A stretch of 64,000 nt of DNA from Malacoraja senta (Eukaryota). The DNA is taken from positions 4,962,001 to 5,026,000 of the forward strand of contig CM075996.1 in the NCBI GenBank assembly GCA_038087875.1, read 5' to 3'. Positions 1,725-63,077 of the stretch are shown piece after piece. Both the position numbers and the translations under genes were made by a program. A model generated the notes under the pieces. The model worked only from the letters and a program-made list of their open reading frames with translations, ran no database searches and was not told the DNA's origin. How positions within the stretch are numbered: the stretch's first letter is position 1; the number at the start of each line of letters is the position of its first letter.

Positions 1725-4700
1725 CTGTGAGAGAAAAGTACATTGCAAGTTCCTCAATCACGCATTGTATTATTTAGTAAGATCACAGGGGCAGAAACAA
1801 GGAACTGCAGATGGTGGTGGACAAAAAAAAGACAAAGTGCTGCAGTAACTCAGCAGGTCAGGCAGCATCTCTGGAGAACATGGATGGGTGTCCTTTTGTG
1901 CTTCTTCAGATCCGATCCGAAACATCATCTATCCATGTTCTCCAGAGATGCTGCTTGACCCACTGAGTTACTCCAGCACCCTGTGTCCTTTACATGATTA
2001 GTCACTTTACAAATTGCAATCTAATGTACAATATCTTATTTTACATTGTAACAATTTTATAATTTACATTTATAATTATAAAGTTATCATTTAAAAAAGT
2101 AAGATAACCTGTTGTCATTGGGAACTAAAATATCATTGCTGGATCTTTGGGTAAATTGCTGCAACAGGGTACGTGAGAAAAAGTGTGAAAGAGTAACCGG
2201 ACATCTGCACCAGATAAGATTGTGGAAACAAAGATAACAAGAGGCGTGGAGACAAGAGCGAAAAAGCATCGAAACCAGAAAATGACATTGAGAAATAGAA
2301 TAACGAGGACAATGAGACAATGTATGTGCGGTTTGACTGAATTAGTCACATGGAGGCTTGATTGAATTATTTCATGTATGTATCTATGCAATGTCTTTGA
2401 ATCAAAGGCAGCAAGACAAACTGAATTTAATGAGAACAGAGGAAGGAACACCAATCAAGATCAAACGCAGTCAGCCCTGAAACCCCTTGACACTTACACT
2501 GGCTGTCCAAGATGGGCTGATTTATTTTACCCACAAAAGTGACTGAGTTATAAGAACAATAAAAACAATTGACATAACTCTGAAGGTAGACAAAAGTACT
2601 GGAGAAACTCTATGGAGCGAAGGAAATAGGCAACGTTTCGGCCCGAAACGTCGCCTATTTCCTTCGCTCCATAGATGCTGCTGCACCTGCTGAGTTTCTC
2701 CAGTACTTTTGTCTACCTTCGATTTTCCAGCATCTGCAGTTCCTTCTTAGACATAACTCTGAACTTGGATTTAATTATGGATTAAATAATATTTTGATTT
2801 GATACAATTTTAATCCTTGTGCACCTTTGTATTAATAATAACCTTAGTGCAACAATATCAGAACCAACAGACATTCCCAAATGTTACAGAGCTTAACTTT
2901 CATTTCTGGGCTGTTGGCCAGACGGACAAAGAGGCTGGGTTCTGGGTGTGAAATCTCAGCATTTATATCAACTGGAAAACCACTATTCAGCAACTCGGCT
3001 CTGCCGAGGTTATTTAGTGCAAGGGGATGGCCGATTGTCGAGAAGCCTCTAAATGAACGATACCCTGGTCTTGTACAGCATCTCTGGCTCAGCATGGGTC
3101 TCAAGGTGGGGAGAGTGGTAATGAACATGGTTAACACTGCTGAAACAATTGTTTTCTTAACCCCCAAATTAACTGCTAAGCAGGTAAAGGTGTTTGGGGA
3201 AACAATTAAGTTGTCATAACAGCATGGAAACTCCGATAACAGTTGCTCAGTAAAGAGTTTAAACCCAGTGAAGACGAAGGAATGGCAAAATATCTTCCCA
3301 GTTTTTACCTCTGTTTTTTAATGTGCCCCAAAACATTTTGTTTTAAAATCACATTTATGAGCTGGCTTTCAGCTGTTCTCTTCAAACTCCTTTCCTGTAA
3401 TTTTTTAATTCTCATTAAATTTAATCAAATTCTTGACCAAGCTCTGGTCTGGGGTTCCAATTTTTCCTCTTATGACCCTGGAACATCAAAAGGAGATTTT
3501 TCTATTTTAAAGTCACTACAAGTAGAAATAGTCATGGCTGGAAATGTGCATCCTGATAAATCAGTAGCTCTCAATATTATAATGACAATAAACACCACAA
3601 TACCTTATAATCATGAATTATTCGTTCTGTCACTGCCTTGTCCAACATCTTCTTGTACCATTCCTGCAGTCTTTTGGGTTTAGGGATTTTCTGATCCAGT
3701 GGATGGCAGTGAAAAATATAATCATCGCCTTCACTTGGAGGACAAGCCCAAATGTGCCCAGCTGTGTATCTGGATTGGATTAAATTAAAAAAACATGAAA
3801 ATAAGCGCAAAGCCAGATTAGGATCTCGTGCTCTGATACAGAGGAGAAAAAACACATGCCAAAAAAAAAAGTTGGTTCTACCCGCAAAAGGAATGTGTAC
3901 TTTGGGTACGTTCAACATTCCCGCTTGATAGTTAGACAGGGAGCAGTTTGGAACCTCGGCACTTGCACTAGGCAACTTCCCCCTTTTTTGGTAAGTAACT
4001 AGGAGCCATAAGTTACTTTTTCTTTAATGAACCCATCAGTTGCTGACAAAGAAAATACTAGATACATCTACTTAATGCACATGGTTGAAACATATAGCAA
4101 CAAACTATATTTGACTGCTTTTTATCTTTGCATCATCTTCTTAAAGGGCCTGTCCCACTTTCACAAGTTATTCACAAATTCTCCCGCGTCTTCCCCTTGA
4201 TTCAAACTCGCAGAATGTTCGTAACGAGTCCGTAGGAGGTTGTAGATATATCGTAGCGGCCCGTTATGTTAGCCGGAGGTACTCGTGGCATCAGGTAAGT
4301 CGGGACATTTTTTCCAGCCCGATAAAAAATGCCCACGAGTAAAAAAATGGTCGGTTTTAAAGAAACTGCAACATTTTACTCGTAAGGAGGGCATCGAAAT
4401 AGTCGTGGGAATTCGTAGACATACTCGTAGGAGTTCGTGAACATAGTCGTGGAAGGTCATAGGAGTTCGTAGATTACCACGATCTTGATTTTTTTTTTTT
4501 AGGTCCTTTAAACTCGGCAGAGGTTTTGAATTAAGTCGTGAAAGTTGGACAGGCCCTTAAGCCAACGTGCAATGTAAAAAAACCCATACATTAAATTCAG
4601 CTCCAAGAGGAAATAGAGATGCAAAGCCAATTTTTCAAGAAAGTGAAAAGATGATCAAATGTTAAATGAAAAATAGACTAGGAATATTTCATTATTATTA

Positions 4701-7700
4701 CAGCTACACCTAGTAAACACTTACCCCAACTTTCTTACATATTCTAAGTATCCAATCAGAATTTCGTGATAGACAGCTGTTCTCAGACATCGAGGGCGGA
4801 AGAAATGTACACTATCGAGGTATGATATGTACACACGTCTGTAATGGAAAATAAATCGTTTAGCATCTTCAAAAGCATCAAAAATAATTTTCAAGTTAGA
4901 GTTACCCATATGGCTAGCCTTAACTGGTTGTTTTATTGTGAAGTGTTAAATCATTGATATTCATTACACGACAGAAAGTGGACATCAATATTAATCATAC
5001 ATGATCAGAGCACACTTAAATGTTACATTACAAAAACATGTCGTTTAAAAAGCTAATACAGACCAGAAAGACAGACCATCAACCAATAATCAGGCTTCAG
5101 CCAGAATATTCTTCATCTTTCAGTAATTTAAATTATATTGTAAGAGAACGAAATAAAGTATTTTTACAGCAAAAACTATCTGCTCCAACAAGTTCATATT
5201 TCCACTAACTCAGAAACAGAGCATCTCTTGAATCTTTGCACATTGGCTGCCTCAATGGCTTTCCACAGCAATTTAATAATTTATTTAAATCCCTGCAATG
5301 CGAAGTTTCGAGCTGACATTCCACTTCAATTTGTTTACAACCTTTAAAAATCTAGAATAATTGAGTCATGCTTTTAGAGTTTAGAGAAACAGCATGAAAT
5401 ACCGGCTTTCTAACCAGAGTTCATGCCTGACCATCAATCAACCGTTCACACCAGTTTTGTGTTACCCACTTTCTCATCCATTCCCTACACACTTGGGGCA
5501 ATTTCCAGCAGCCAATTAAGCTACCAACCTGCATGTCTTTTGGATGTGGGAGGAAACCAGAGCACTTGGAGGAAAGCGATGCAGTCAAGGGGAGCACCCA
5601 AGATCAGGATTGAACCCGAGTCTCCGGCACTGTGAGGCAGCAGCTCTACCAGCTGATGGAGCCACTAATTCACAGCACCAGAGATCTGGGTTCAACCCTG
5701 ACCTCAGATGCTGCCTCTGTGGAGCTGGCATGTTTTCCCTGTGATTGCGTGGATTTCCTCCGGCTGCTCCGGATTCCTCCCACTATTGCAAAGACGTGCA
5801 AGTTTGTAGGTTAATTGGTCTCCGTAAATAGCCCCTTGTTTGTAGGGAGTGGATGCGAAAATGGAATAACAAAGAACTAGTGTGAACGAGTGATCGATGA
5901 TCGGCATGGATGTGGGGCTGAAGGGCCCGTTTACATGCTGCATCTTAGAAACTTAAACTAAAATTAAACTGGAATTTACCTTTGATTGGGTGGAGGACAG
6001 TCAGAACCGTACTCTTGCACATGCATGCCAAAGAAACATACATCTACACCGTCAATCTCTTCAAAGGCAAACAAAGCTTTTGTTCGATAAGGAAACGACT
6101 CAGCCATCTCCCCATTATCAACAAACCTGTAAGTAAAGACAAAGTAATTAATAAAGGTCCCTGAGGTTTTGGGGATGTATCTACAAATGTTTAATTTGCT
6201 GTATTGTTACCAAATATTGCACATAGATATCATACAGATTCAGCATTACACATAATCCCCAGTTATTTTGTTCAGGAGATGTTACACTTGTCGCTTACCT
6301 CCCCCCTCAACACCTTTCAAGGACCCAAGTAGTCGTTCCAGGTGCAACAGAGGTTCACCTGCACCTCCTCCAACCTCATCTATTGCATCCGCTGCTCTAG
6401 ATGTCAGCTGATCTACATCGGTGAGACCAAGTGTAGGCTTGGCGATCTTTTCGCCGAACACCTCCGCTCGGTCCGCATTAACCAACCTGATCTCCCTGTG
6501 GCTCAGCACTTCAACTCCCCCTCCCATTCCAAATCCGGCCTTTCTGTCCTGGGCCTCGTCCATGGCCAGAGTGAGCACCACCGGAAAATGGAGGAGCAGC
6601 ACCTCATATTCCACTTGAGCAGTCTGTACCCCAGCGGCTTGAACATTGACTTCTCCAATTTCCGGTAGCCCTTGCTGTCTCCTCCCCTTCCCAGCTATCC
6701 CTCAGCCCTCTGGCTCCTCCTCTTCCTTTCTTCTCCGAGATTAAAGTTCGTGCATCTTGGTTAAAAAGAAAACTTGATTGTGTTTTGTTATTGGTTTGGA
6801 ATAACCTGGACCATTAATTATTCTGCAGAGAGTAAAGTTCAGATATCAAGAACCAGCAGATCTTGTATTTTTCTTTCTTTTAGTTGTTTAATATAATTTT
6901 ATGCAATGGTCAGGTTGTCGGAGACAGCTTGGTCCACTATGCCTGGCTGCTTCTCGGCTCTTTTGTGAGCAAGGCTCTTTCAATCCCTCTGTAACAGGTC
7001 CCACTCATTCTTAAGAGTTTAGTTTAGCTTATTGTCACGTGTTCCGAAGCATAGTGAAAACCTTTTGCTGCATGCTAACCCAAGAGTCATACAGCGTGGA
7101 AACCGGCCCTTCAGCTCAACTTGCGCACACTGACCAACATGCCCCATCTGCACCAGTCCCACCTGCCTATGCTGCCCTTTTCCTTCAAAATCTATCCTAT
7201 CCATGTCCTATCCAAATGTCCTTTAAACGTTGAGATTGTCTACCTCCTCTGGCAGATCACTCAATATACCTACCATTTTTTGTGCAAAAAAAAAAGTTTC
7301 CCCTCAGGTTCCTATTAAATCTCCCCCCCCCCCCCCCCCCCCCTCACCTCTCACCTTATGTTCCTCATTAATGGAATACAATATAACCCACATTCATTCC
7401 GGCAGCAGTTCTGGAAAGTGGCAGATATTTTCATCACCAGTTTCTCCCACTAGCTAGCTCTCGGATGTATTTCATCTGATTCGACTTTACTATTTCCACT
7501 CTTCTAAATTCAATGATTTATGATCTTCTCCTGTCACATTCTCAACCATGCCATAGACAACAACACGTATGCTAACGTGGACATAATCACCATCAAAAAT
7601 CACCAGTCCTACTGCTGCATATTTTTAAAAATGTGCCCTACCCTGTTCTCTAAATCTCCTTCTCCCAGATATTCATACTCGTTGTCATGCCTCGGATGCT

Positions 7701-10700
7701 TCTCTTTTGTGGAAGGTGTCAGATATACGAGTAATTGTCATATCGGTATTTCAGTGACATTTTAAATTCACAATCGTGCAAATGGATGCTCTCACCTCGT
7801 CTTCATTCCAGACTTGACTTCTACAATTTTATCTGAACTGTGCACCACCCGAACAGTGCACTCACCAGCCTCCGGATGATTTTGCCTGCGGAGGAAGTCG
7901 TTAATACGGGTTTCTAGGTAAATACCCAGCTTAGTGGTTGGTAACCCTGGGGAGAAAACAAAAAGTTTTTGACACAATGTTACTGCATTCTCTGCATTTG
8001 AATGTTACACTTCAGTAAAGAAAAAAAGAATCAGATGTACACCATTCAGCGGTGGGGCATTTCACAGGCAATGTACATCATAGCCAGAGCTACAACAAGG
8101 CCAGTCAGTTCCTTCTACAATGTTGTCGTAGTTACTCTGATTTCTCCAGCAGCTGCAGCGGTATCTGTTCCTTATCGTCCATGACAGCATTTTTCTGGAG
8201 CTGTACCATTGAGAAGGAAGTCTGAAGAAAGGTCTTGACCTGAATCGTCACCCATTCCTTCTCTCCAGAGATGTTGCCTGTCCCGCTGAATTACTCCAGT
8301 ATTTTGTGTCTAACAAATATTACTTATCGTCCATGACAGAATATATCTAGATCTTGCGAAAATGTAAACCTGAACTGTTTCATATGATGAGTTGCAAATG
8401 GACTTGAACATTGCATAATCAGCAAATAACTCCATTTTGAACTTTTAATGGAAGGACATCATTAAGTTCATGGCGTCAGAGCTACTTAACAAGGAAACAA
8501 GCCCTTTGGCCCAACTCAGCCTAACCGAGCCAATCCTACTTGCTCGCACTTGTCCCATATTCCTTCAAACCTTTTCTATCCATGTACATATCCAAGTGAA
8601 TGAAGCAGCTCAAGATGTTTTGGGTGTGTGACTTTTAATACCACAATCATTTTTCTTGTGTGACTTCATCTACTGAAGCTTTTTCCCCTTGATGCTCGTT
8701 GACTTCAGATCCACTGGGGCTTCTTGATGTCACACTACGCCAAATGCTTCATTGATGTCAAGGGAAGTGACCGTCTAACTTTGATAGATTTAGATACAAG
8801 TAATAGGTGAGAAACCACAGGTCTACCAGACACCCACAAAACCTCATCTCTTTGGAAGATAGTTGTTTTTTTGAAAGGGAGACATTGTTTTGTTAGACAA
8901 GCCCAACAGCTTTTAAAGATGCATCGGTTTTACAATCACAATTCACAACCAAGTGTACTTACTTTTTGCACAGAATTTATTTTCTTTCCTTGTTTTCCCG
9001 GTTTTCTTTAAACAGGGGTCACAAACAAAACTGCAAGAGGTAAAAGACGACTAGTTATTAGAACTCAAAAAGTTGAAATGGACGGTCTATTTGCATGCGA
9101 TAAAATTGATTTTTTAAAAACCCCTTCAAATGCAAGTAACTCTGCACATATTGATGTAGAATCCAACTTACCCTGAGGGCCAAATAAGTTCATGGTGAAG
9201 GACACAGATCTGATGCATTTTCCGACCACATTCAGTACATTCAACAAATCTGCAGAAACATGATACAGATGCCGACAGGAGTTAATAAGGTAATATGCTT
9301 CTCTCACCTTAAGAAAAACGGGGAGAAAATGTGATGCATGGCATCTTTAGAGTAAAATGCTTCCTAGAGAGAGAAAAGGGGTCAGCTTGGAAGCCACCCT
9401 TCTCAATGGTACATCAGCAAAACCAATGAATGAATTTGATGTCCATCCATTTCACATATACGTTAAAATGAGGACCAGGAATACTTAAAAGTTATCAAAA
9501 GAAAAATGTTTGCTATTATCATAAACTGATTGGTTTTGATTTATCAAACAGGAATTATTTACTAGATAAAGCTAAACCATTTTATAATCTTTTCAGAAGC
9601 CAATCTCAGACTGTGCAATTATGGATTTGCTACTGGCAATTTACACAAAGTTGTCTACCTTAACTATATAAATTTCTAACACCAGCTCAGCAGGTACATT
9701 AGCAAAAAACCTCAAAACAAAACAGGACAAAAAAGATGCAGGAAAGAAGGCAAATGGAAATCAAATCCCAGCAACAGGAAACTTGGCCACCGGGATTAGA
9801 GTTTCAGGATAAGGTCAACAGTTACCCGATTAAAACAAACCACTGTCTTCAGAAATCACTTACACTTCAGGATCCAGTGTATCATTCTTCTTCTTTGAGA
9901 ACTGTTCCTTTGAAATAGTCCTAAAATAAATGAAAATCTGAAGATATAATAGAATGCAGGAAATAGCACAGTGTGATGGAATTGTTTAACGTGATCATAT
10001 CTAGTCTATATACCAATATCTTATTGCAATTTCATTTATTGATTTTTATTCGTATTTAGCTCTAGTAACTGGCAAGCACAGAATTTATTTCACTGGCAGT
10101 GAATGCAAATGCAATACAAATTTCACCAATGTAAAATGATATCAACATGGTTATTAATATCCATATTCTGCTGGAAAATACTTACGTTTGAGGCTGTGAA
10201 GGGTCATCACCCAGGGAGACAGTTTCTCCCTGGATCTCATTGAAACATTTCTCGCAGAAGTGATACCTGTTAAAAATAAATGTCTGGGTGAAATTATGTT
10301 TATAACCCTCGAGCAGCAGTCACGAATCAATTACAATATCTCAGTGTGTAAAGTTTATGAAATGATTATAACAGAAAACATGGCAATGTACAGATTACTA
10401 AAGCATTTTAGTTCTTTTTAAATAAAAACAATCAACAAAGGATAAAATGGGATTGGCCACATTTATTTTCTTGCAAGTTGCCCACAGGGTGCAAACACCT
10501 GTCCGACAGATCAGAAACACTCTTCAGGAGTCAGGTGTAGATTTGTCAATGACCACTGTCCGCAGAAGACTACATGAACAGAAATACAGAGGCTACACTG
10601 CAAGATGCAAACCACTGGTTAGTCGCAAAAATAGGATGGCAAGGTTACAGTTTGCCAAGAAGTACTTAAAAGAGCAACCACAGTTCTGGAAAAAGGTCTT

Positions 10701-13700
10701 GTGGACAGATGAGATGAAGATTAACTTATATCAGAGTGATGGCAAGAGCAAAGTATGGAGGAGAGAAGAAACTGACCAAGATCCAAAGCATACCACCTCA
10801 TCTGTGAAACACGGTGGTGGGGGCGTTATGACCGGGGCATGTATGGCTGCTGAAGGTACTGGCTCACTTATCTTCATTGATGATACAACTGATGACGGTA
10901 CTGGCATAATGAATTCTGAAGTGTCTAGACACATCCTATCTGCTCAAGTTCAAACAAATAACTCATTGGCCGACAGTTCATTCTACCGCAAGACAATGAT
11001 CCCATACATACTGCTAAAGCAACAAATGAGTTTTTCAAAGCTAAAAAATTGTAAATTCTTGAGTGGGCAAGTCAATCACCTGATCTGAACCCAATTGAGC
11101 ATGCCTTTTATATGCTGAAGAGAAAACTAAAGGGGACTAGCCCACAAAACAAGCATAAGCTAAAGATGGCTACAATACAGGCCTGGCAGAGCATCACCAG
11201 AGAAGACACCCAGCAACTGGGTGAGGTCCATGAATCGCAGACTTCAAGCAGTCATTGCAAACAAAGGATATGCAACAAAATACAAAACAAGGCTACTTTC
11301 ATTTACATGACATTGCTGTGTCCCAAACATTATGGTGCCCTTAAATGGGGGTACTATGTATAAACACTGCTGTAATTTCTACATGGTGAAACCAAAATGT
11401 ATAAAAATGGCCTTTAATAAAATCTGACAATGTGCACTTTAACCACATGTGATTTTTTTCTATTACAAATCTCGAAATTGTGGAGTAGAGGCAAATAAAT
11501 AAATGACGGGTCTTTGTCCCAAACATTATGGAGGGCACTGTATATTGCAGCTCTGTTGCAGCACCACACTTTATTAGTCCAAATTATGTATTCATATCCC
11601 AGAGTGCGATTGGATCCCTCAAAATATTTTACTGACTTTTTATTTAAGGATTTCTTTTTTATCTGGTTAGAGAATGTAAATACATCTAGCGTCAAATATG
11701 CCCATCACATAATTATAATGCAAATTCTGCATGGTAAGCTTTCACTGAACTAATTTACTACATTGAATCTGAAGCGATTTTGAAAATCTTTTAACATGCA
11801 TCAAATTACTCACCCAGGGACTGTTTAAAACCAATCAGAGACTGTATGAAGATTTTTTTTTTAACTGTTCCCAATTCTTAATGGCATCAACTTTCAGTCA
11901 TTTGTCCAATTTAATTTAAACAGAAGTATCAAAATATTTTGATGGTATAACAAGCTATAAAACGCTCATGTGGTACATATGAAAATTATTTCCATCTCAT
12001 TTTATATATTTTTCCTCCACACAGAAAATTATATACTGTAACCCGTATTAAGAGGGGAAAAAAATATGATAATCAGAATATTATTCCAAAATTAAAGAAG
12101 TGCAGATGCTGAAATAAAAATAGAAAATGGTGGAAGGCATGTGTGGAAAGAGAAGCAGTTAAAATTTCAGGTCTGATCCTATGTCAGTTCCAGCGAAGGG
12201 CTTCAGACCTCAAACGTTAACTCTGCTTCTCTTTTCACTGATAGTATAATGATCATTTGACATGCTCATAACCAGGTTAGATGATATTATTAAAGAGACA
12301 CAAAACCAGGCCTAGTAGAAATCAGTGCATCAAATCATTTCTTTAAAATATTAAAATACTTCAGGTTGATTCAAAAGCCACCATCTTACCTGTTTTGATA
12401 ACTGTAATAGGTAGCATCCCGGGGGATTGTACATAACTGCTTCCCATAGCAACAGAGGGTTTGTGGAGAAAATTCCAGCTGCAAAGAATCAGGAGAAATG
12501 ATTATAGCTCATGCAACTCTTCAAAACAGCAGAAAGGTTGCTGCTTTTTGTTGAAATGCCACAGAATCTTACAAATCTATAATTTGCTTTTCAGTGTGGA
12601 GTGTTCATATGAAGGTCAGCAAGACACCTGCTGCTCAGCCTCACAGCATCGTTAATATTCCCAGGTAGCCAATTAACATGCCCAATAATTTTATATCTTT
12701 ATTTCACCCAATGAGAAAATCTGCTTTTTTACTCGCAACAGCGGCAAGCATTTTGCCTAGTGAATAGAACGCTGAGAGCAATTACAAGTTACATATGGTC
12801 CCTTTCATAAAATTTATAGAAAATGGAGCTCAATGCAGAGAATCGAGCTATCCTGGCTTGGTTACATTGTGGTTGAAACAGTAGACGGCAAAAGCATTAC
12901 TAAAGAGCACCAGTTTATTCCTTACATTTTTACATATTTTCTTTAGTTGAAAAATACAAATTGCTCCCCAGTCAGAGAAACTTTAAACATTAATGCTGCT
13001 TCAATTAAAGAAATGTGTTATTTTTTCCTTTGCCATCACAAAATAGGGTTCAGCAATAAATGGCTTATCAAAATCGTTGGTCAGATCAGAACAAAGTCTC
13101 ACCTGTAAGTTCATATTACCAAATGCCAAGTATTAATATCCAGATAGCTTAAAACTATTCCAACGAGAACAACTTTGGATAAATTTGACGCTGGCAATAA
13201 ATGGAAAAACTGCACAAAATAAACAAATTTAGAATGCGGCAGTATGGAAACCCCTTAAGACCCAAGCGAGTGGGATGGACTAAGGCTGCAAGGATTCCTG
13301 TTGCTGATTCTTTGTCTGGAGTATGTAGTGAACATCACAAAGAATCTTAGTGTGATATGCATACTTACGCCATGGTATAAAAAGTAAGGCCACACCCATT
13401 TAAGCTTAAAAACGAGGTAAAGATACCAGGACTTTTATATCCCATGTAACTGTGATTCTTACATCATTGGGTGGAGAGTATGTTTTTTGGGGGGAAAGGG
13501 AGGGGGCGCGAAGAGATTGTAATCTGTACATTTGGTTAATTTATTAGATTTACTTGGATGGTATTCTAAAGCCTATCATGGAGGCTATTACGGACTTCAA
13601 ATGCTAAAGTCTTTGAGAATCTAGAAGGAACAAAATTATGTTTTAATGGGGAGATAGTCAATAAAAAGGGATACGTTATTCAAATCAAGCAGTAATTTAG

Positions 13701-49700: not shown

Positions 49701-51703
49701 AGATGGTTAGCACACAAGAATAATCGTGGGTCTTTTTTATTGTGAATATCCAGTTGAATCATAGCTGTTATGTGGTTTGGCAAAGATAATCCAATCATAA
49801 TTTCTAGCAAAAGTAGCTTACAATTTAAGATTATGTTGATATATAGAAGCAAATTGCAATCATCTCCACATGGTCTCCTCTGCATTGGGGAAGTCAAACA
49901 TAAATTGGATCAGTGTTGTGGAACACCTCTGCTCACTTCACAAATGTTCCAAAGCATTCGCACATTTGTGAGTATCTGTCTACAGTATCAACATTGGTAT
50001 AAAGCTCAAGATATATCTCTAATTTGTGCTTTGCAGAATTTGCATTTCACATTAAATTAATTTCAATTATTCTGCGGTACACCACGTCAGAACTTTTGTT
50101 ATTGAATAATCCTTTCAATACCCAATTTTGCCTTGTACTATTGCCTCTGTCATTTAATTGCACAAGCCAAATACTAAATGTTGGCCTTTCCTCCTCCATC
50201 CCCCTTTCCCTTTCTTGATTTTAAAAAATCTAACTTTTATCAGTTTTCGTGATCATCAAGCAAAAATATTTACTATCATTCGTTCAACGGAGAGGGTCCA
50301 GAGGAGATTTACACAAATGATCCCAGGAATGAGTAGGCTAACATGTGATGAGCGTTTGACAGCACTGGGTCTATACTCGCTGGAGTTTAAAAGAATGAGG
50401 TGGGACCTCATTGAAACGTACAGACTAGTGACAGGCTCGGATACAGTGGATGGGGAGAGGATGTAGGAGAGTCTAGGACTAGAGGTCATAGCCACAGAAT
50501 TAAAGGACGTTCTTTTAGGAAAGAAATGAGGAGGAATTTCTTTAGTCAGAGAGGGGTGAATCTGTGGAAATCTTTGCCACAGAAGGTGTGGAGGCAAAGT
50601 CTGTGGATATATTTAAGGCAGAGATAGATTCTTGAACTATGGTGTCAGAGGTTATGCGGAGAAGGCAGAAGAATGGGGTTAGGAGGGAGAAATAGATCAA
50701 CCATGAATGTATGGCGGAGTAGACTCGATGGGCCAAATGGCCAAATTCTGCTCCTATCACTTATGATCTTATGAACACTTTTTTTCTATTGGGAAGACCA
50801 CCTTGAGTTAGCAGGCACTAGATCAATGAAGTATTTCAAGAACCGATTTCCAATTTCCAGCATCAGTACTAATAAATATTTGCCACATCCCCAATAGTGT
50901 CATTCGCGGAATAGAGGCTCATCACATTTTTTTAATGCAATTTCACTTTCATGTTAATGTACACAGTGCAAAATGCTTGGCTCTTACCTTGCTCAATGCC
51001 CCAGGCTGGGGTCCTTTGAGACCAGCTGCCATCTGAGGTGATCCTTGGGATAACGATTCAGCAAGTAGATTATTTGTGTTGGACATGCCTGGACTTGAGT
51101 ACTGTACATTAGGTCTGCCCCTTCCGGCACCAAGAGAACCGTTCATTACTTGTCCCTGGATCATGCCCTGAGTATTCACACTGTTCATCAGAGCTGGATT
51201 CATATTAGCATTCATGCTCATTCCTGCTTGGTTGGTTGGACTGTTTATACCAGGCATCAAACCGGTTGCTGACGTATGAAGCTGGTCGTGTTTTTGGGGG
51301 TTCGCGGACTGTGGCGTTGTAGGTCGCTGGCTGGCTCCACTTCCTCCAATCCCCATATTGGGAGGGGACGTAAGACCACCTTGCGTTAACGGGCTCTTGA
51401 CCATGCTACTTAAACTTCCTATACTGGGACTATTCTGTTGACTTTGGCTGCCTACGGACTGAACTGGACTATCCATGGATCGTGATGAGGCACCACCAGA
51501 ACTGACTGTTGCATGTCCCATGCTGATACTAGAACCACTGCCTCTCAGAAGTTCTGACAGTTGCTTGTGCTTCGAGGCAGCATCCTGCACCATGCCAACA
51601 CCAGTTAGCTGAGCCAAGTCACCTCCGTTTGTCAGTCCTAAAGGATCTGAACGGATCAATTCATCTGGCAAGTCATTCTCAAGATCAAAAAAGGGTCCAA
51701 AAT
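1557..51703 (-). CDS. EP300: EP300 (p300 acetyltransferase), coding exons 2-28 of 31 (gene extends beyond both window ends)
   Basis: 27 GT-AG exons in consistent phase, 4652 nt total. Residues match p300 rather than CBP as recalled: [61 protein letters not shown]. Confidence 0.95.
1790..1991. mobile_element. Palindromic Penelope-type terminal-repeat derivative
   Basis: Inverted arms GTGCTGCAGTAACTCAG...CTCTGGAGAACATGGATG / TATCCATGTTCTCCAGAG...CTGAGTTACTCCAGCAC. Confidence 0.7.
2571..2763. mobile_element. Palindromic Penelope-type insertion with 14-bp flanking duplication
   Basis: GACATAACTCTGAA at 2571-2584 and 2750-2763; near-perfect inverted arms centred near 2640. Confidence 0.8.
3604..3769 (-). 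CDS. EP300: EP300 exon 27 (HAT)
   Basis: [55 protein letters not shown]; cag/ and /gtattg; 166 nt. Confidence 0.96.
4145..4557. mobile_element. MITE with TAA TSD (PIF/Harbinger-like)
   Basis: TIRs AGGGCCTGTCCCACTTTCAC / GTGAAAGTTGGACAGGCCCT; TAA at 4142-4144 and 4558-4560; no coding capacity. Confidence 0.8.
4725..4838 (-). CDS. EP300: EP300 exon 26 (HAT)
   Basis: [38 protein letters not shown]; cag/ and /gtaagt; 114 nt. Confidence 0.96.
5374..5655 (-). mobile_element. tRNA-derived V-SINE (HE1-like), minus copy
   Basis: Reverse strand head GGTAGAGCTGCTGCCTCACAG...GGGTTCAATCC, body GGTTTCCTCCCACATCCAAAAGAC, tail CTCTAAACTCTAAA. Confidence 0.75.
5650..5960 (+). mobile_element. tRNA-derived V-SINE (HE1-like), plus copy
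   Basis: GGGTTCAACCCTGACCTC, V-domain-like TGTGGAGCTGGCATGTTTTCCCTGTG, 3' GAAGGGCCCGTTTACATGCTG. Confidence 0.75.
5980..6126 (-). CDS. EP300: EP300 exon 25 (HAT)
   Basis: [49 protein letters not shown]; cag/ and /gtaaat; 147 nt. Confidence 0.96.
6290..6740 (+). mobile_element. Penelope-like element 3' fragment encoding a GIY-YIG endonuclease domain
   Basis: Reading frame 6342-6668: [29 protein letters not shown]...EH...PVAQHFN...E...GLN, the GIY-YIG pattern at the C-terminus of PLE ORFs; no RT upstream. Confidence 0.85.
7010..7350 (-). mobile_element. Degenerate LINE/SINE 3' tails (CR1-type) with poly-C run
   Basis: GGAAACCGGCCCTTCAGCTCAAC...CTATCCATGTCCTATCCAAATGTC resembles other CR1-type 3' ends; C run ~7324-7343. 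Confidence 0.5.
7796..7946 (-). CDS. EP300: EP300 exon 24 (HAT N-terminus)
   Basis: [50 protein letters not shown]; cag/ and /gtgaga; 151 nt. Confidence 0.95.
8215..8311 (+). mobile_element. Penelope-type terminal-repeat copy with mutated hammerhead core
   Basis: CTGAAGA-AAGGTCTTGACCT-GAAT-CGTC followed by the family 3' block; CTTATCGTCCATGACAG repeated at 8171-8187 and 8323-8339. Confidence 0.7.
8963..9030 (-). CDS. EP300: EP300 exon 23 (PHD end)
   Basis: [22 protein letters not shown]; cag/ and /gtaagt; 68 nt. Confidence 0.95.
9172..9249 (-). CDS. EP300: EP300 exon 22 (PHD)
   Basis: [26 protein letters not shown]; cag/ and /gtaagt; 78 nt. Confidence 0.95.
9864..9920 (-). CDS. EP300: EP300 exon 21 (RING)
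   Basis: [19 protein letters not shown]; tag/ and /gtaagt; 57 nt. Confidence 0.95.
10186..10266 (-). CDS. EP300: EP300 exon 20 (RING)
   Basis: [27 protein letters not shown]; cag/ and /gtaagt; 81 nt. Confidence 0.95.
10492..11540 (+). mobile_element. Tc1-like transposon, 5'-truncated and frameshifted
   Basis: Transposase motifs [14 protein letters not shown] and SPDLNPIE across frames; right TIR ends GGAGGGCACTG then TA at 11541-11542. Confidence 0.92.
12390..12478 (-). CDS. EP300: EP300 exon 19 (RING)
   Basis: [30 protein letters not shown]; cag/ and /gtaaga; 89 nt. Confidence 0.95.
14152..14246 (+). mobile_element. Penelope-type terminal-repeat copy (hammerhead core with one substitution)
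   Basis: CTGAAAA-AGGGTCTCGACCC-GAAA-CGTC at 14155-14182. Confidence 0.75.
14530..14869 (+). mobile_element. Degenerate CR1 LINE ORF2 3' fragment
   Basis: [16 protein letters not shown]...[10 protein letters not shown]. Confidence 0.7.
14870..15085. mobile_element. Palindromic Penelope-type insertion nested in CR1
   Basis: Inverted arms centred near 14958; TACAAGATA(C/A)GGGG at 14856-14869 and 15086-15099. Confidence 0.7.
15110..15453 (+). mobile_element. Unclassified non-autonomous retroelement 3' part
   Basis: Shares TGCCTT..C.CACAGTG.G and CTGT.G.GG...GTT with 24150-24413 and 36835-37173; ends in ACTTACTTAC tail. Confidence 0.5.
16425..17050 (+). mobile_element. CR1 LINE 3' fragment
   Basis: [38 protein letters not shown]...[17 protein letters not shown]; 3' UTR ...GGGCCGAATGGCC. 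Confidence 0.9.
17492..17731 (-). CDS. EP300: EP300 exon 18 (bromodomain)
   Basis: [80 protein letters not shown]; gaag/ and /gtcagt; 240 nt. Confidence 0.96.
18738..18781. repeat. 15-bp tandem repeat, about 3 copies
   Basis: (AATATCTCCTTAGTT) x~3. Confidence 0.8.
18895..19617 (-). mobile_element. Unclassified GC-rich non-autonomous retroelement (~720 bp)
   Basis: 3' block ATACTTTATTAG.CAAGTATGTTTT..AACATACGAGGAATTT is shared with 14003-14112; 5' block CCAACAGTCTG.CTG is shared with 36835. Confidence 0.55.
20245..20363 (-). CDS. EP300: EP300 exon 17 (bromodomain)
   Basis: [39 protein letters not shown]; tag/ and /gtaagt; 119 nt. Confidence 0.96.
20560..21045 (+). mobile_element. Degenerate CR1 fragment
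   Basis: GTATTGTGTGCAGTTCTGGTCACC and AGAGTGCAGAGGAGAGTCACCAGGATG ([13 protein letters not shown] motifs). Confidence 0.65.
21251..21404 (-). CDS. EP300: EP300 exon 16 (acidic region with xKxE SUMO-type motifs)
   Basis: [51 protein letters not shown]; cag/ and /gtacgt; 154 nt; phase fits neighbours. Confidence 0.88.
21655..22145 (+). mobile_element. Rex1/Babar-type LINE 3' fragment
   Basis: [32 protein letters not shown] then [24 protein letters not shown]; tail AAAGCTTTTCACTGTACCTCGGTAC. Confidence 0.65.
22594..22779 (-). CDS. EP300: EP300 exon 15
   Basis: [62 protein letters not shown]; tag/ and /gtgcaa; 186 nt. Confidence 0.85.
23194..23637 (-). CDS. EP300: EP300 exon 14 (Pro/Gln-rich)
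   Basis: [17 protein letters not shown]...SLHQNSPSP...TPTPHQTPP...PPQHPSTP; tag/ and /gtgagt; 444 nt. Confidence 0.9.
24045..25025 (+). mobile_element. Degenerate CR1 fragment with nested insertion (~24150-24413)
   Basis: CR1-like GGCTTAAAAGTGGATTAATTGCCAGGGACTGATGAGATGTAT and GAGAGAATGCAGAGAAGATTCACAAGG; insert flanked by TAATCT. Confidence 0.55.
25714..25872 (-). CDS. EP300: EP300 exon 13
   Basis: [53 protein letters not shown]; cag/ and /gtatta; 159 nt. Confidence 0.88.
26186..26213 (-). ncRNA. Minimal hammerhead ribozyme-like core
   Basis: Minus strand CTGATGA-AGAGTCTAGACTT-GAAA-CG-TC; no stem I pairing in this copy; activity unproven. Confidence 0.5.
26219..26246 (+). ncRNA. Minimal hammerhead ribozyme-like core
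   Basis: CTGATGA-AGGGTCTCAACCC-GAAA-CG-TC; activity unproven. Confidence 0.5.
26999..27111 (-). CDS. EP300: EP300 exon 12
   Basis: [37 protein letters not shown]; cag/ and /gtttag; 113 nt. Confidence 0.88.
27403..28234. mobile_element. Fold-back non-autonomous DNA element with ~300-bp inverted arms
   Basis: Termini AAGCGAGTTCGGTATTCCGACT / AGTCGGAATACCGAACTCACTT; arms ~27403-27698 and ~27822-28234; same termini as 63091-63790. Confidence 0.85.
28114..28141 (-). ncRNA. Minimal hammerhead ribozyme-like core within a Penelope-type insert (28050-28141)
   Basis: Minus strand CTGAAGA-AGGGGTTTGGCCC-GAAA-CG-TT; insert flanked by AGAAA(C/T)GAAG at 28040-28049 and 28140-28149. Confidence 0.5.
29192..29269 (-). 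CDS. EP300: EP300 exon 11
   Basis: [25 protein letters not shown]; cag/ and /gtaaca; 78 nt. Confidence 0.9.
31116..31290 (-). CDS. EP300: EP300 exon 10 (KIX C-terminus)
   Basis: [35 protein letters not shown]...; cag/ and /gtaaga; 175 nt. Confidence 0.95.
31943..32060 (-). CDS. EP300: EP300 exon 9 (KIX)
   Basis: [39 protein letters not shown]; cag/ and /gtaaat; 118 nt. Confidence 0.95.
32362..32620 (-). mobile_element. CR1 LINE 3' end
   Basis: [34 protein letters not shown]; same 3' UTR as the 16425 copy. Confidence 0.85.
33194..33331 (-). CDS. EP300: EP300 exon 8 (KIX N-terminus)
   Basis: [46 protein letters not shown]; cag/ and /gtaagt; 138 nt. Confidence 0.95.
33535..33844 (+). mobile_element. 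Full-length tRNA-derived V-SINE (HE1-like)
   Basis: A box TGGCACAGCGG, B box GGTTCAATCC, V-domain-like TGGAGTTTGTATGTTCTCCCTGTG, tail TCTAAAGTCTAAAG. Confidence 0.85.
33969..34077 (-). CDS. EP300: EP300 exon 7
   Basis: [35 protein letters not shown]; tag/ and /gtaagt; 109 nt. Confidence 0.88.
34847..35089 (-). CDS. EP300: EP300 exon 6
   Basis: [14 protein letters not shown]...[24 protein letters not shown]...; cag/ and /gtaggt; 243 nt. Confidence 0.92.
36835..37173 (+). mobile_element. Unclassified non-autonomous retroelement (internally deleted relative of 18895-19617)
   Basis: 5' GGTGGCGCCAGCAATGGCTGCCTCACCAACAGTCTGTCTG; 3' tail CCTTTGAACCTTTGAA. Confidence 0.55.
37402..37515 (-). CDS. 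EP300: EP300 exon 5 (TAZ1/CH1)
   Basis: [37 protein letters not shown]; cag/ and /gtaagt; 114 nt. Confidence 0.96.
38385..39255 (+). repeat. G-rich degenerate minisatellite
   Basis: Recurring unit approximately GGGATCAGTACAGGATG(G/A)ATGGGG with long G runs. Confidence 0.85.
38664..38691 (-). ncRNA. Minimal hammerhead ribozyme-like core within a Penelope-type insert (38603-38695)
   Basis: Minus strand GT-CTGAAGA-AGGGTCTCGACCC-GAAA-CG-TT-GC; perfect stem II; about 2 bp of stem I. Confidence 0.55.
39419..39858. repeat. Near-perfect GC-rich inverted repeat (~205-bp arms, 21-nt pyrimidine spacer)
   Basis: Arms 39419-39622 and 39644-39858; the ORF track shows the same peptide on opposite strands. 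Confidence 0.92.
40282..40537 (-). CDS. EP300: EP300 exon 4 (TAZ1/CH1)
   Basis: PQQPSPVQQ...[60 protein letters not shown]; aag/ (or cag 6 nt further in) and /gtgagt; 256 nt. Confidence 0.93.
40641..42287 (-). mobile_element. Full-length Tc1-like transposon (DD34E, IR/DR-type ~220-bp TIRs), decayed ORF
   Basis: TA-CAGTGCCCTCCATAATGTTTGG ... CATTG-TA; inner repeat CCATAATGTTTGGGAC near 40850; HTH (PKSTVWDII), GRPRKT, QDND-34 residues-E. Confidence 0.95.
42420..43600 (+). mobile_element. Degenerate CR1 ORF2 (RT to 3' end)
   Basis: AGCGGAGTGCCATG, AAGTTTGTGATGATACAAAG (KFADDTK-like), AGAGATCTGGGGGTCCTGGTACAC (RDLGVLV). Confidence 0.75.
43851..44021 (-). CDS. EP300: EP300 exon 3
   Basis: [57 protein letters not shown]; tag/ and /gtgagt; 171 nt. 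Confidence 0.92.
45100..45294. mobile_element. Palindromic Penelope-type insertion with perfect 16-bp flanking duplication
   Basis: ACACCAAGTCACCAAA at 45100-45115 and 45279-45294; minus-strand hammerhead core 45178-45205 with GAAA changed to AAAA. Confidence 0.8.
47790..48127. mobile_element. Truncated MITE (right end only) of the AGGGCCTGTCCCACT family
   Basis: Ends AAGTGGGACAGGCCT followed by TTA; left boundary approximate. Confidence 0.6.
50285..50775 (+). mobile_element. CR1 LINE 3' fragment
   Basis: [44 protein letters not shown]; tail CTTATGATCTTATGA. Confidence 0.88.
50988..51703 (-). CDS. EP300: EP300 exon 2 (LxxLL nuclear-receptor interaction region)
   Basis: [16 protein letters not shown]...[16 protein letters not shown]...[12 protein letters not shown]...ALSK; cag/ and /gtaaga; 716 nt. 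Confidence 0.94.
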
Positions 51704-53045: not shown

Positions 53046-53141
53046 GCCGTCTTTAGCTTATGCTTGTTTTGGGGTTTAGTCCCCTTCAGTTTTCTCTTCA
53101 GCATATAAAAGGCACGCTCAATTGGGTTCAGATCGCGTGAT
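53046..53141 (-). mobile_element. Short internal Tc1 fragment
   Basis: Matches 53974-54072 (DLNPIE...LKRKLKG region). Confidence 0.8.
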
Positions 53142-53860
53142 CATCTGTACTTTATTGCAGACTCAAGTCACTAATGCAAGATTGAATGGAGGTTAAAATT
53201 CAGTTAACTGCCTTTTCTGCCAAGAGTTTACCAATTTAAACACAAAAGTTATGCAGGATGAAACTCTATCCCACCCATAAGGTTTAAACATGAGAATTGT
53301 TGAGATCAGGATTTGTTACAATAAGACAAAATCACAAATTTAGATATCAGTTCGTAATAATTTGCAAAACATAACCAATAACACAAAACATAATTAACTA
53401 GTACAACAATTTTCCAGAGTTACAAATAATCTTAAATTCCAAACTTCAGATTTTAAGCAAATTCTAGCATATATTTTAAACATTTTTCAAGCTGGTATTA
53501 ATAATCATAATTTTCATGGTATTCATTAATAACTGGATATAGTATATATATATATATATATACCATTGGTTTAATTATGGATAGTGTTAGGGAGTTTATT
53601 CCTAGTTTGAGTAAAGGAACCATATCAGTGGCCATAGGAAATGGACATTTCTGGCAGTATAAATTATACTGTATTTTCCTTTATAATTTATAAAAAGCGT
53701 TTTGAAGAGATGTAGGAGGTAAGCACTAAGTTATTGGATACTCATATCACTCAGGCTTTAGGCAACACAGATTTCCTCACCCTTCCCCATTCACTGCCAC
53801 CAGTCATTTAAACAAATGTATTCCAAATAGATATTAAAAAAAAAATTTAAACGATGTGCT

Positions 53861-55348
53861 GGTATTTTGTTGCATATCCTTCGCATGCAATGACTGCATG
53901 AAGTCTGCCATTCATGGACATCACCAGTTGCTGGGTGTCTTCTCTGGTGATGCTCTGCCAGGCCTGTATTGTAGCCATCTTTAGCTTATGCTTGTTTTGG
54001 GAGTTAGTCCCCTTCAGTTTTCTCTTCAGTGTATAAAAGGTATGCTCAATTGGGTTCATTCAGATCGGGTCATTGACATGGCCACTCAAGAATTGACCAT
54101 TTTTTTAGCTTTGAAAAACTCCTTTGTTGCTTTAGCAGCATGTTTGGGATCATTGTCTTGCTGTAGAATGAACCGCCAGCCAATGAGTTTTGAGGCATTT
54201 GTTTGAACTTGAGCAGATAGGATGTGTCTATACACTTCCGAATTCATTATGCTACTACCATCAGCAATTGTATCATCAATGAAGTTAAGTGAGCCAGTAC
54301 CTTCAGCAGCCATACTTGCCCAGGCCATAACACCCCCACCACCGTGTTTCCCAGATGAGGTGGTATTGCTTTGGATCTTGGGCAGTTCCTTCTTTCCTCC
54401 ATACTTTGCTCTTGCCATCACTCTGATATAAGTTAATCTTTGTCTCATCTGTCCACAAGACCTTTTTCCAGAATTGTGGTTGCTCGTTTAAGTACTTTTT
54501 GCAAACTGTAATATGGCCATCCTATTTTTGCGGCTAACCAGTGGTTTGCATCTTACAGTGTAGCCTCTGTATTTATATTCATGAAGTCTTCTCCAGACAG
54601 TGGTCATTGACAAATCCACACCCGACTCCTGAAGAGTGTTTCTGATCTGTCGGACAGGTGTTTGGGGATTTTTCTTTATTATAGAGAGAATCTTCTGTTT
54701 TCAGCTGTGGAGGTCTTCCTCGGCCTGCCAGTCCCTTCGCGATTAGTAAGCCCACCAGTGCTCTCTTTCTTCTTAATGATGTTCCAAACAGTGATTTTGA
54801 TAAGCCTATGGTTTGACTGATGTCTCGAACAGTTTTAGTCTTGTTTCTCAGTCTCATAATGGCTTCTTTGAATTTCATTGGCACAACTTTCTTCCTCACG
54901 TTGATAAACAGCAATAAAAATTTCAAAAGGTAATGGAAAGACAGTAGGAAAGACTAGGTGCTGATAGCTCTCTTACACCTGCATTAAGCAGGCAATTAAA
55001 CACACCTGAGCAATTACAAACCCCTGTGAAGCCATGTATCCCAACATTATGGTGCCCTGAAATGGGGGACTATATATAAACACCGCTGTAATTTCTACAT
55101 GGTGAAACCAAAATGTATAAAAATGGCCTTAAAAAAACTGACAATGTGCACATTAACCACATGTGATTCTTTCTATTACAAATTTCAAATTGTGGAGTAC
55201 AGAGGCAAATAAATAAATGATGGCTCTTTTCCCCCCCAAACATTATGGAGGGCACACAAAAATGCTGGAGAAACTCAGCGGATGCAGCAGCATCTTTGGA
55301 GCGAAGGAAATAGGCAACATTTTGGGCCGAAACCCTTGGAGGGCACTG
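53861..55348 (-). mobile_element. Tc1-like transposon lacking its 3' TIR; 5' TIR tip interrupted
   Basis: [26 protein letters not shown] in split frames; TIR ~55040-55348 ending CACTG. Confidence 0.92.
55256..55336 (-). mobile_element. Penelope-type insert within Tc1 TIR, 10-bp TSD
   Basis: TGGAGGGCAC at 55246-55255 and 55337-55346. Confidence 0.8.
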
Positions 55349-56934: not shown

Positions 56935-57400
56935 GTATGTTCACAAGGTTAATTCCCGGGTTGGCAGGACTGTCATATGCTGAGAGAATGGAGCTCTGGA
57001 ATTTAGAAGGATGAGAGGAGATCTTATTGAAACATATAAGATTATTAAGGGTTTGGGCATGCTGGAGGCCGGAAACATGTTCCTGATGTTCGGGGAGCCC
57101 AGAACCAGGGGCCACAGTTTAAGAATAAGGGGTAAGCCATTTAGAACGGAGATGAGGAAACACTTTTTCACACAGAGTTGTGAGTCTGTGGAATTCTCTG
57201 CCTCAGAGGGCAGTGGAGGCCGGTTTTCTGGATACTTTCAAAAGAGAGCTAGATAGGGCTCTTAAAGATAGCGGAGTCAGGGGATAATGGGAGAAGTCAG
57301 GAATGGGGTATTGATTGTGGATGATCAGCCATGATCACATTGAATGGCGGTGCTGGCTCGAAGGGCCGAATGGCCTACTCCTGCACCTTGTCTATTGTCT
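56935..57400 (+). mobile_element. CR1 LINE 3' fragment
   Basis: RRMRGDLIETYKIIKGL...[24 protein letters not shown]; tail TTGTCTATTGTCT. Confidence 0.88.
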
Positions 57401-58476: not shown

Positions 58477-58879
58477 GCATCAATGCCTTGTTTAAAGGTG
58501 AAACGAATTGCTGGAGTAACTCAGAATGAATCGGTCTGAAGGGTCCAAGCATCATCTATCCACGTTCTCCAGAGATGCTGGACTCCAGCAATGTGCGTTC
58601 TTTTGCGTATTAACCATCAACTACGGTTCTTTGTTTCAACAACATAGAATGAAAGTACCTTACTCGATTATAGCAGACAATCAACAATAACGGCTGCCTA
58701 TGGTCTGTTATGAGGACAGTTTACTGAATGTGTAAACTGCAGGAAATGTGTCCACTTAATCCACAATTTTACAATGAAAGTTTCAAATTTAACTAAGCCT
58801 CCACAACATCGACTAACTTGAAGTAAGTCAAATGACTAGAGATAGAGTCTGCTTATCGTCAAACATCCATTTATGCTAA

Positions 58880-60680: not shown

Positions 60681-60899
60681 CGTATAGCCAAGTGCACTTT
60701 CTGCGGAGCATTTCACATCCAAACATCACTTCAATAAAAATAATATATTTTCCCTTATGTGTGCAAGTAACACATGAAAATGTCCTAATCTACTTAGCAA
60801 AGAGCAAGCAAACTGAACGTTACAATGAACAGCACGAGGAGATATTTGAATAGGGCTGCTAGTATCACTTAGCAACTGCAGGGATACGAATTTAAGAAA

Positions 60900-61620: not shown

Positions 61621-62990
61621 AAATCTCTTTCAATAAACATTTATTTTTCAATTAACATGAAGTAGTAGATCAAGATCCTGCTGTTACATGAGATTATTAT
61701 CCATATTTTTTTTTAATTGCGTCCATATGACAAATTGAGTAACCACACTTTCCTTAAACAATGCTGTGAATTACCTTTCTGCTCATTGCGCATGGATGCA
61801 ATTTGGTGCAAGTTGGGAGATGTGAGCAGCATGGGACTTGCTTTATGGAAAGTTAAGTTTATAGAAGGTAGAATCTAAAAGATTGACTACCAGAGCATCA
61901 AAGTTGACTAGACCAGAAGTAATAAAGGCTGGTATCAACAAAACATGAGTTGTGGGAGGCATGGAGTGGAACAATATTTGGAGTTATACTCAGATCATTT
62001 TATGATGGCATGGATATGATAGGACTCTCATTATAGTGAGTGACACCAGGGATTCAAATGGGTGGGCTTTGTCTCAGACAACAGCAAGGAACAAGGGGTG
62101 GTCAATGGTAAGAGAACAACCATAGCAATAACTTAAAGTAGCATCTGCAGGCTTCCAAATATATAGTTCAGCACAAGTCATAGAGACAATGAATATTTAC
62201 ATTGGAAATGGAAGTCTCTTCGCTCTGCTGCTTCGGTAATGACCATATAATAAAATTTAACAATGAGATTTATACCACGTTTCTCTCCCCAATGCCTTCA
62301 CCTCAAACTGACTTTTCCTCCGAAATGCCATAATTTCCAAAAACACCAAGCATCAGCACAATTAAGAAATAATCAGCTAACATTACCACACATAATACAA
62401 AGATGGCATAACTCTGGAACTATGTCCTGACATTTTCTAAAAAGGAGGAAATAAGAGAAAGCAGAGAGAAAAATATTTTCAACCTAGCATGAAATCAAAT
62501 GGAAGTCACAAAGTGTAACATTCACCAAGTAATGGAGGACCTAATGCTGAGGCAGTTCACTTAAAAACAAACACGTTCCTTTAAATGAAACATGGATTGT
62601 ATGCCCAAGGTGATGCGTGCTGTAAGAAAAAGGAAACTGAAGGAAAAAAAACACTTTACAGATAACTTTCAGCTAAATCCAGGACAATAACAGCAAGAAC
62701 AGGAGGGAAATTAAAGTAAATAAGGAACTGAAAAGGCATTATTAAACTGAGCCCCCAAATATACTGGGCCAAAATCCTGCCCAATAAATACCAGCCGGTC
62801 CAGGCTTAAATTGCTTGAATTTATCCATACATATCACACGTTCCAAATGCAATAACAAATTCACATGCAGCCCAGTAACAGAGCACAAACTTTCAGATTC
62901 CCCAGCATGTATTACTGATAATCTGGATTGGGTTAGATCTAGCAAAGAGGCATTAATTTCAATGGAGATTTTACTGCAGTAAGAAGAGGC

Positions 62991-63077
62991 AAGGGGTCTC
63001 TAACTGAAATGTCACCCATTCCTTCTCTCCAGAGATGCTACCTGTCCCGCTGAGTTACTCCAGCACTTTGTATCTAT
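62991..63077 (+). mobile_element. Penelope-type terminal-repeat copy (core truncated)
   Basis: AAGGGGTCTCTAACTGAAATGTCACCCATTCCTTCTCTCCAGAGATGC...GAGTTACTCCAGCAC. Confidence 0.7.

Follow-up and report, generated by a model that had tools for sequence, protein, structure and literature searches.

The question raised by this locus is what kind of sequence a short dispersed repeat with a hammerhead-ribozyme core represents. The repeat recurs along a 64,000-nucleotide stretch of the genome of the cartilaginous fish Malacoraja senta (assembly GCA_038087875.1, contig CM075996.1, positions 4,962,001 to 5,026,000 of the forward strand), hereafter the window. A reading made from the letters alone (the sequence-only reading) had placed the copies in EP300 introns and proposed a ribozyme-bearing, non-autonomous Penelope-like element (PLE) family. 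The host gene, on the minus strand, does belong to the p300/CBP family (EP300 or CREBBP) by its Pfam domains (bromodomain, RING_CBP-p300, HAT_KAT11 and zf-TAZ). We searched the window with a profile built from copies of the repeat in the 1.94-Gb genome. The sequence-only reading had counted at least 15 copies but named 18 positions. The profile matched all 18, 15 of them at E ≤ 1e-6, which establishes the repeat as real; the other three are weak, old copies (12190, E 0.014; 15660, E 0.01; 16220, E 0.001). Two window copies beyond the named ones were found at 1913-1988 (plus strand) and 36353-36473 (minus strand), and a first seed profile gave 23 matches in the window.

The combined evidence suggests that the repeats are 5'-truncated or inverted end-pieces of an autonomous Neptune-type PLE, whose predicted hammerhead likely cuts only in a tandem transcript or with the element protein, and that the scattered copies are mostly decayed and likely inert. 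We assign this reading a probability of roughly 0.8. The parent element is represented in the window itself by a plus-strand fragment at 6273-6699, which had escaped the sequence-only reading. It comprises the GIY-YIG endonuclease end of the element (open frame 6333-6668) and the start of the 3' untranslated region (UTR), is cut before the hammerhead, and shows 87% DNA identity to a full-length copy at locus L208; its Pfam GIY-YIG match is weak. When the genome was queried with this fragment, 91,382 first-look candidates came up; 150 of these were scored, and 30 loci, including the truncated copy of the window itself, were fetched. The repeat lay 56-109 bases downstream of the GIY-YIG match on the same strand in 26 of the 30 loci, and 9 of the 30 carried an opposite-strand copy upstream. 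A second search, with an N-terminal segment of a homologue from a shark as query, yielded 6,566 candidates (150 scored); all 16 loci fetched for long frames had the repeat behind the frame. The proposed position of the motif behind the GIY-YIG open reading frame of full-length PLEs thus held in both sets. The motif lies ~60-125 bases past the stop codon of the reverse transcriptase (RT)/GIY-YIG frame and is present again before the frame start in full-length copies. The copy at L208 is complete, with an end bearing the tail, an ATG at 1886, a 1,221-codon frame and then the end again; L202 likewise has the end both before and after the frame, and L201 is a tandem. Because the repeat follows the frame and full-length copies run end-frame-end, the repeat is the 3' end of an autonomous element. 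The proposal of a non-autonomous family is not supported, as these very sequences form the 3' ends of elements that code for protein, including some whose intact frames exceed 1,200 codons. Several traits of endonuclease-bearing (EN+) PLEs were observed: a pseudo-long terminal repeat at each end or a tandem arrangement, an inverted 5'-truncated copy, an optional tail, and RT and GIY-YIG in a single frame.

In the protein encoded at L208, RT precedes a C-terminal GIY-YIG domain; the Pfam matches (RVT_1, E 6e-6; GIY-YIG, E 0.002) are both under the cut-off. The search for homologues returned 778 at E ≤ 1e-30, and the nearest named relatives come from rays, skates and sharks. A CX4CX2C linker before the endonuclease and a CCHH motif were found at residues 1088-1096 and 1128-1134. 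A CX2-5CxxC linker marks Neptune/Nematis rather than Penelope/Poseidon (PMC8557442), and the element is accordingly classed here by its linker as putatively Neptune-type. The N-terminal part (L208:1886-3300) is long, proline-rich and repetitive, and the frame has ~1,220 codons versus ~800 in invertebrate homologues. The RT-EN part shares 47-52% identity with proteins of corals and molluscs, for which an old horizontal transfer is a possible explanation. A literature search for Neptune elements in sharks and skates returned nothing relevant. Both this repeat and the ribozyme-headed short family described below may already carry names in Repbase or Dfam.

The abundance of the repeat was estimated from 52 evenly placed stretches, each 10 kb long and starting from round coordinates on the 17 largest contigs (519,600 bases in all; not strictly random). 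The sample contained 247 matches, distributed over 48 of the 52 stretches, and a reversed control gave 0. The resulting density of ~475 per Mb corresponds to roughly 0.9 million copies genome-wide.

The catalytic core described earlier (CUGANGA...GAAA-NN-UH) is whole in only four window copies, at 26213 (minus), 26219 (plus), 28141 (minus) and 38691 (minus). Three of these four have all 4 stem II pairs, as compared to an expectation of 0.005 per shuffled window (200 shuffles). The sequence-only reading was right to see in the motif a minimal hammerhead of type I as known from Penelope elements; its core, the extra base after A9, the G10.1-C11.1 pair and the palindromic ACGU of helix III fit the minimal-hammerhead consensus of PMC4209133. 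Helix I is only 2 bp long, with a U-A/U-G switch, as it is 2 bp in D. virilis (PMC4209133). Stem II consists of 4 bp and a 4-nt loop, not of the 5 bp and 2-nt loop quoted before. Of the 253 sampled copies, 128 extend across the motif; the core is intact in 53 of these, and in 31 stem II and ACGU are retained as well. Bases have been lost most often at CpG sites.

Could the intronic copies be kept to cut or regulate the p300/CBP pre-mRNA? Three of the core-intact copies (26213, 28141 and 38691) do lie on the sense strand of the gene. However, the window holds 21-23 copies per 64 kb, a density below that of the genome sample, and the gene is therefore not enriched. Window copies show CpG decay like all others, the copy at 26213 is tied up in a fold-back pair, and distances of 2 and 12 kb separate the nearest partners on the sense strand. 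Such a role in the host gene is highly improbable.

The pattern of conservation was then compared among copies and among source subfamilies. A biased set of 283 copies from all fetched loci was used, 211 of which fell into four clusters. The three main subfamily consensuses (96, 95 and 15 copies) are 4, 7 and 8% diverged, respectively; at least three subfamilies of different age bear out the earlier suggestion of several waves of spread. The three consensuses agree in all 11 core bases, in G10.1-C11.1, in ACGU and in the 2-bp helix I, and they differ only in loop II, at H17 (C/U) and by two U-A to U-G switches. Selection on the motif is thus weakly suggested between source elements. Among individual copies, the core is only slightly better kept than its flanks.

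Several observations weigh against an active hammerhead. Among copies, non-CpG core bases are kept at 0.945 versus a flank mean of 0.87 and a flank median of 0.92, as expected for insertions that decay without selection. Two-sided compensatory changes in stems I or II were not found in the copies or the subfamily consensuses, all subfamilies being closely related. The covariation of stem II that had been read from four window hairpins did not survive: two of them come from broken-core copies (8220, GAAT for GAAA; 15660, without G12), and changes on the two sides are independent among genomic copies and mostly CpG decay (A at 10.1 together with T at 11.1 in 2/165 rows; Fisher p = 1.0). Furthermore, the modelled active dimer has -6.5 kcal/mol as compared to -36.0 for the best co-fold, the best monomer fold is not a hammerhead, and the Rfam hammerhead models give 19.5 bits in the window (gathering 52) and nothing in L208. 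Such an unfavourable modelled fold would fit the low or protein-dependent activity reported for motifs of this type (PMC4209133; PMC11167929). By eye, a distant CAUC/GAUG pairing that would lengthen helix I was also noticed, but this idea had no covariation support and was discarded.

These points invite the alternative that the motif no longer cuts in this genome and is kept as a fold that is bound by the PLE protein or ends reverse transcription. The 2-bp helix I and the unfavourable modelled active fold agree with it, as do the 5' ends of the copies, which avoid the cut site (see below). In the anole element, core mutants left in vitro insertion unchanged, and no RNA reads ended at the site (PMC11167929). 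Yet the catalytic bases and H17 are all kept across the three subfamilies, the extended form of the D. virilis motif, which shares the 2-bp helix I, cut in vitro (PMC4209133), and the anole motif cut after protein addition (PMC11167929). We consider a motif that has wholly lost its cutting very unlikely and retain a hammerhead that probably needs a partner or the element protein.

The 3' ends of the repeat form two groups ~35 bases apart, which define an optional tail. Head-to-head pairs are frequent: 102 of 253 copies lie in 52 such pairs, with only 5 pairs tail to tail. Six head-to-head pairs lie in the window, where they had gone unremarked, and palindromic inversions of PLE copies are in print (PMC3846280). 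Only 5 of 243 5' ends fall at the predicted cut site (+26 to +30). The 5' ends instead pile up before C3, where 105 of the 139 copies that reach -9 to 0 stop. Duplications of at least 9 bases flank 22 of 130 solo copies (4.5 by chance), and 8 of these 22 have their 5' ends at -11 to +1. The motif begins with a 9-base near-palindrome, TCAG-N-CTGA, at which the two arms of several pairs share an overlap of 8-10 bases. The front edge of the hammerhead, rather than the cut site, may determine where 5' ends and inversion joints fall, a proposal to which we give about an even chance. On the other side, the pile-up is partly inflated by the profile edge and by subfamily-specific upstream sequence, and the 5'-end count defined by target-site duplications (TSDs), which is independent of the profile, is small (8/22).

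The same ends could also be explained if the short copies were a separate non-autonomous unit, with a short RNA that would start immediately in front of the hammerhead and be copied by the PLE protein acting in trans. Both the clustering before C3 and the TSD-defined ends are what such a unit would produce, the short copies bear duplications of their own, and an origin of tandem retrozymes from PLE ends has been published (bioRxiv 10.64898/2026.07.22.740005). However, the young short-copy haplotype (UUCG loop) is the haplotype found behind coding frames, and the head-to-head junctions vary between the 52 pairs. Neither retrozyme-like tandems with whole cores nor a separate frameless subfamily was seen in the window or the 52 stretches, with no genome-wide search made, and the 66-base tandems of L027 lack CUGANGA. 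A trans-copied unit is therefore doubtful at best, and end-pieces of the autonomous element remain preferred. At both L027 and L105, pieces of the Penelope end are repeated head to tail in units of 66 bases, which start with GAAA and are without the CUGANGA half.

The copying of the autonomous element could proceed as follows. Two motifs of a tandem transcript would pair through ACGU, or the element protein would fold one, and a cut 3' of GUC/GUU would free the unit RNA, by analogy with the systems of PMC4209133 and PMC11167929. Reverse transcription would start at either tail site on RNA uncut at its 3' hammerhead and would usually halt prematurely, in many cases shortly after passing the motif front. 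By folding back or annealing, the TCAG-N-CTGA near-palindrome might then initiate the inverted arm. We rejected an intron that, like the one in D. virilis, would end at the motif front: the motif is preceded by a pyrimidine tract and CAG, but the spliced junction from a stop-codon donor has one genomic match, an unspliced 3' UTR. A spliced joint from this donor was also missing among the joints listed for three presumed-RNA contig sets of a relative; the contigs cover the end region and show neither RNA ends nor levels. The absence of spliced copies is still compatible with splicing in RNA because PLEs keep introns.

The six pairs in the window are located as follows. The first has broken cores and joins a minus arm with the tail (1912-1796) to a plus arm (1913-1988). 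The second (2577-2754) is cut inside stem II, with the tail on the plus arm and a 14-bp TSD. The plus arm also bears the tail in the pairs at 14869-15085 and 45109-45282, the latter with a 16-bp TSD. The hammerhead core is kept in both arms of the pair at 26082-26328 (C3 at 26213 minus and 26219 plus), and the pair at 58495-58638 is decayed. Solo ends were found at 8218-8314 (plus; core broken, GAAT), 14151-14246 (plus; G8 mutated), 28043-28142 (minus; core intact, 3/4 stem II pairs) and 30798-30911 (minus; with tail, cut inside the core). Further ends are cut inside stem II (39845-39942, plus) or inside the core (55249-55337, minus, with a 10-bp duplication; 62992-63081, plus). Older-type ends with the tail lie on the minus strand at 22187-22304, where the core is broken, and at 36353-36473. 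The weak matches represent one or more old diverged ends at 12094-12250 (profile match 12189-12094, minus), an old end that lost G12 (15617-15685, minus) and another old end (16233-16333, plus). The end at 38602-38696 (minus; C3 at 38691) keeps both core and stem II, and its upstream pyrimidine-rich repeat matches other copies over ~400 bases. A degenerate 22-30-base tandem repeat directly upstream of it on the minus strand (38398-39175), common to other copies, is probably an expanded 3' UTR of one subfamily.

The window holds other repeats as well. Tc1/mariner-type transposon copies, 87-95% alike, were found at 10426-11440, 40742-42207 and 53046-55174 (Pfam HTH_Tnp_Tc3_2). GC-rich nested inverted repeats resembling miniature inverted-repeat transposable elements lie at 39419-39858, 27477-28049 and 63289-63552, with arms of 75-136 bases that are 87-99% complementary. 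The 3' fragments at 16241-17048, 32379-32650, 50256-50627 and 56941-57379 are, by their protein motif, putatively of CR1-type, a kind of long interspersed nuclear element (LINE).

A second ribozyme-bearing element lies at 32950-33139 on the plus strand, antisense to the host gene. It is a 190-base internal-deletion derivative of a Vingi-like LINE with a hepatitis delta virus (HDV)/CPEB3-type ribozyme motif at its head, flanked by an 11-bp TSD (left copy 32939-32949, right copy 33141-33151, both plus). The Rfam CPEB3 ribozyme model (RF00622) matches at 32937-33014 with 35.1 bits (gathering 35), and P1 of the window copy is damaged. A genome search gave 1,840 candidates, with 173 exact matches to the 36-base head and 156 to the tail; the family comprises well over a thousand copies that start at G1 of the motif, and none was found in the 519.6-kb sample. 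The copies (loci L061-L080, L141-L170 and L226-L255) are ~190 bases long with a GAA tail. A duplication of at least 8 bases was found in 18 of 27 head-selected copies and abuts G1 in 14 of these 18, the head is retained in 21 of 29 tail-selected copies, and 4/4 short copies passed the RF00622 gathering score. The pairing read from the sequence has HDV-like traits: a P1-P2-P3 pseudoknot, a G1-U pair, a catalytic C in J4/2 and an element start at G1. The family is also present in DNA contigs of three related organisms, two of which bridge the window's same insertion. In L062, one short element is inserted inside CUGAAG of a Penelope hammerhead.

A decayed LINE of 3 kb, L287, was identified as the parent. 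The short element is composed of its first 157 and last 32 bases; in the short copy L153, bases 2-157 and 158-189 match the two L287 ends. An RTE element had been guessed as the partner from the GAA tail, but no other such tails occurred in the loci then examined, and L287 took its place. The family thus shows the traits of a bipartite non-autonomous LINE, namely joined 5' and 3' ends of one LINE, TSDs and a common tail. It resembles NARTc, RIME, the R2 short internally deleted elements and Vingi-1_EE derivatives in combining 5' and 3' LINE ends with an HDV-type ribozyme at the first base (PMC5786205, PMC4035085). The six ribozyme-bearing LINE clades listed in PMC5786205 do not include Vingi.

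Related whole LINEs were also found. A search for a second family with the exact head of the short element gave 5 matches, all variants of that element. A pattern with the same P2/P3 letters and another P1 gave 4 matches, one of which belonged to L256. This locus holds a whole LINE that has a 1,001-codon frame, a TSD and a tail end as in the short element. The frame contains an apurinic endonuclease (APE) and an RT (Exo_endo_phos, RVT_1), and no RNase H match was found in it with Pfam. A compact single frame with APE and RT and no RNase H agrees with the Vingi description in PMC13708176. The homologues of L256, including an Anolis protein with 49% identity, carry no clade names. Vingi, rather than RTE, is presumably the right clade name for these LINEs. 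Metagenome relatives were limited to one locus without the 5' end, and among solved structures only distant RTs matched the protein.

A search with the N-terminus of L256 gave 744 candidates, of which 150 were scored and 30 loci fetched; 11 family-A copies among these loci begin at the ribozyme. An RF00622 scan of 14 loci gave 52.6-64.2 bits for four family-A copies, which placed 4/4 family-A LINEs scanned above gathering, 34.4 for family D, 23-26 for family C, and nothing for six family-B loci or L274. Whole APE-RT LINEs whose heads score up to 64 bits are L256 (head at 6819, minus), L258-L266, L269 and L275/L288; two of them, L256 and L266, contain tandem repeats of a 26-base segment of the ribozyme. 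Two further LINE families of this group (L278-L283 with L291, and L285/L286 with L289/L290) have heads that look HDV-type by eye, with other letters. Relative to the Rfam CPEB3 consensus, family A shows paired changes in P1 and P2, and changes at one J1/2 base and in P4.

The CPEB3 ribozyme, which mammals have conserved and which has been linked to memory, could not be traced deeper for lack of outgroups (PMC8233481); it has been described as not found outside mammals. The related LINEs share with it the letters of P3, L3, the P1.1 region and J4/2 (RF00622; PMC8233481), whereas P1 of the short element has 6 bp, not 7. By eye, families B and C seem to keep the fold with other letters, and the CPEB3-like letters are therefore not forced by the fold. 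This likeness, compared over the ribozyme only, makes it likely that the CPEB3 ribozyme is a domesticated 5' end of a Vingi-like LINE, for which the intact LINEs and mini-copies of this genome would supply the missing non-mammalian outgroup. As for a precise donor, the parent of the short element counts against one: although it has the same letters, it groups with a sea-urchin protein and away from families A and D, and the letters are therefore widespread in this LINE group.

Of the two elements, the ribozyme-headed LINEs matter more than the hammerhead repeat. If the proposed origin is true, their heads would explain where the CPEB3 ribozyme came from, supply it with an outgroup and render the question testable. 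Vingi-like LINEs, which currently serve as tools for gene writing (PMC13708176), would also join the ribozyme-bearing clades. The Penelope repeat carries no particular message about EP300. With an element that is young, intact, tandem and Neptune-type, and with about a million insertion records, it offers good material for studying the role of the hammerhead in Penelope copying (PMC11167929).

The insertions resemble the EN+ PLE insertion unit (PMC8557442, PMC3846280) in their partial tandems, head-to-head inversions with junction palindromes, one-sided optional 30-40-bp tail, TSDs, CX2-5CxxC linker and CCHH motif. The clustering of 5' ends and junctions at the hammerhead front edge is a feature here that was not met in the available parts of those reports, and the long proline-rich N-terminal part of the 1,221-codon frame is another feature of this element. 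PAc, a Poseidon element of Anolis (Frangieh et al. 2024, PMC11167929), is similar in that two 3' ends define the tail and copies are made from RNA still holding the uncut motif. PAc, however, belongs to another clade, its frame starts inside stem II whereas the ATG here lies just past the tail, and its activity was assayed whereas that of the motif here is predicted. Non-LTR retrozymes (bioRxiv 10.64898/2026.07.22.740005) share a type I hammerhead derived from PLE ends, but they are head-to-tail tandems with a whole motif per unit, as opposed to the solo or head-to-head pieces observed here. They have been reported in one chondrichthyan genome, for which the supplement of that work may list this repeat.

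The closest match is the minimal hammerhead of metazoan PLEs (Cervera and De la Pena 2014, PMC4209133), and the Penelope repeat is of this already described kind. Both have the CUGANGAH core, an extra base before G10.1, the G10.1-C11.1 pair, palindromic positions 15.2-16.2 without a loop III, a short helix I, which here is at the 2-bp minimum, and a site after the RT-EN frame. Both also occur mostly as single motifs of truncated copies, some on opposite strands. Cartilaginous fishes are absent from Table S1 and Figure S3 of that study, and the present repeat adds them to the known hosts. Thousands of motifs were counted there, as compared to ~0.9 million repeat copies in this genome.

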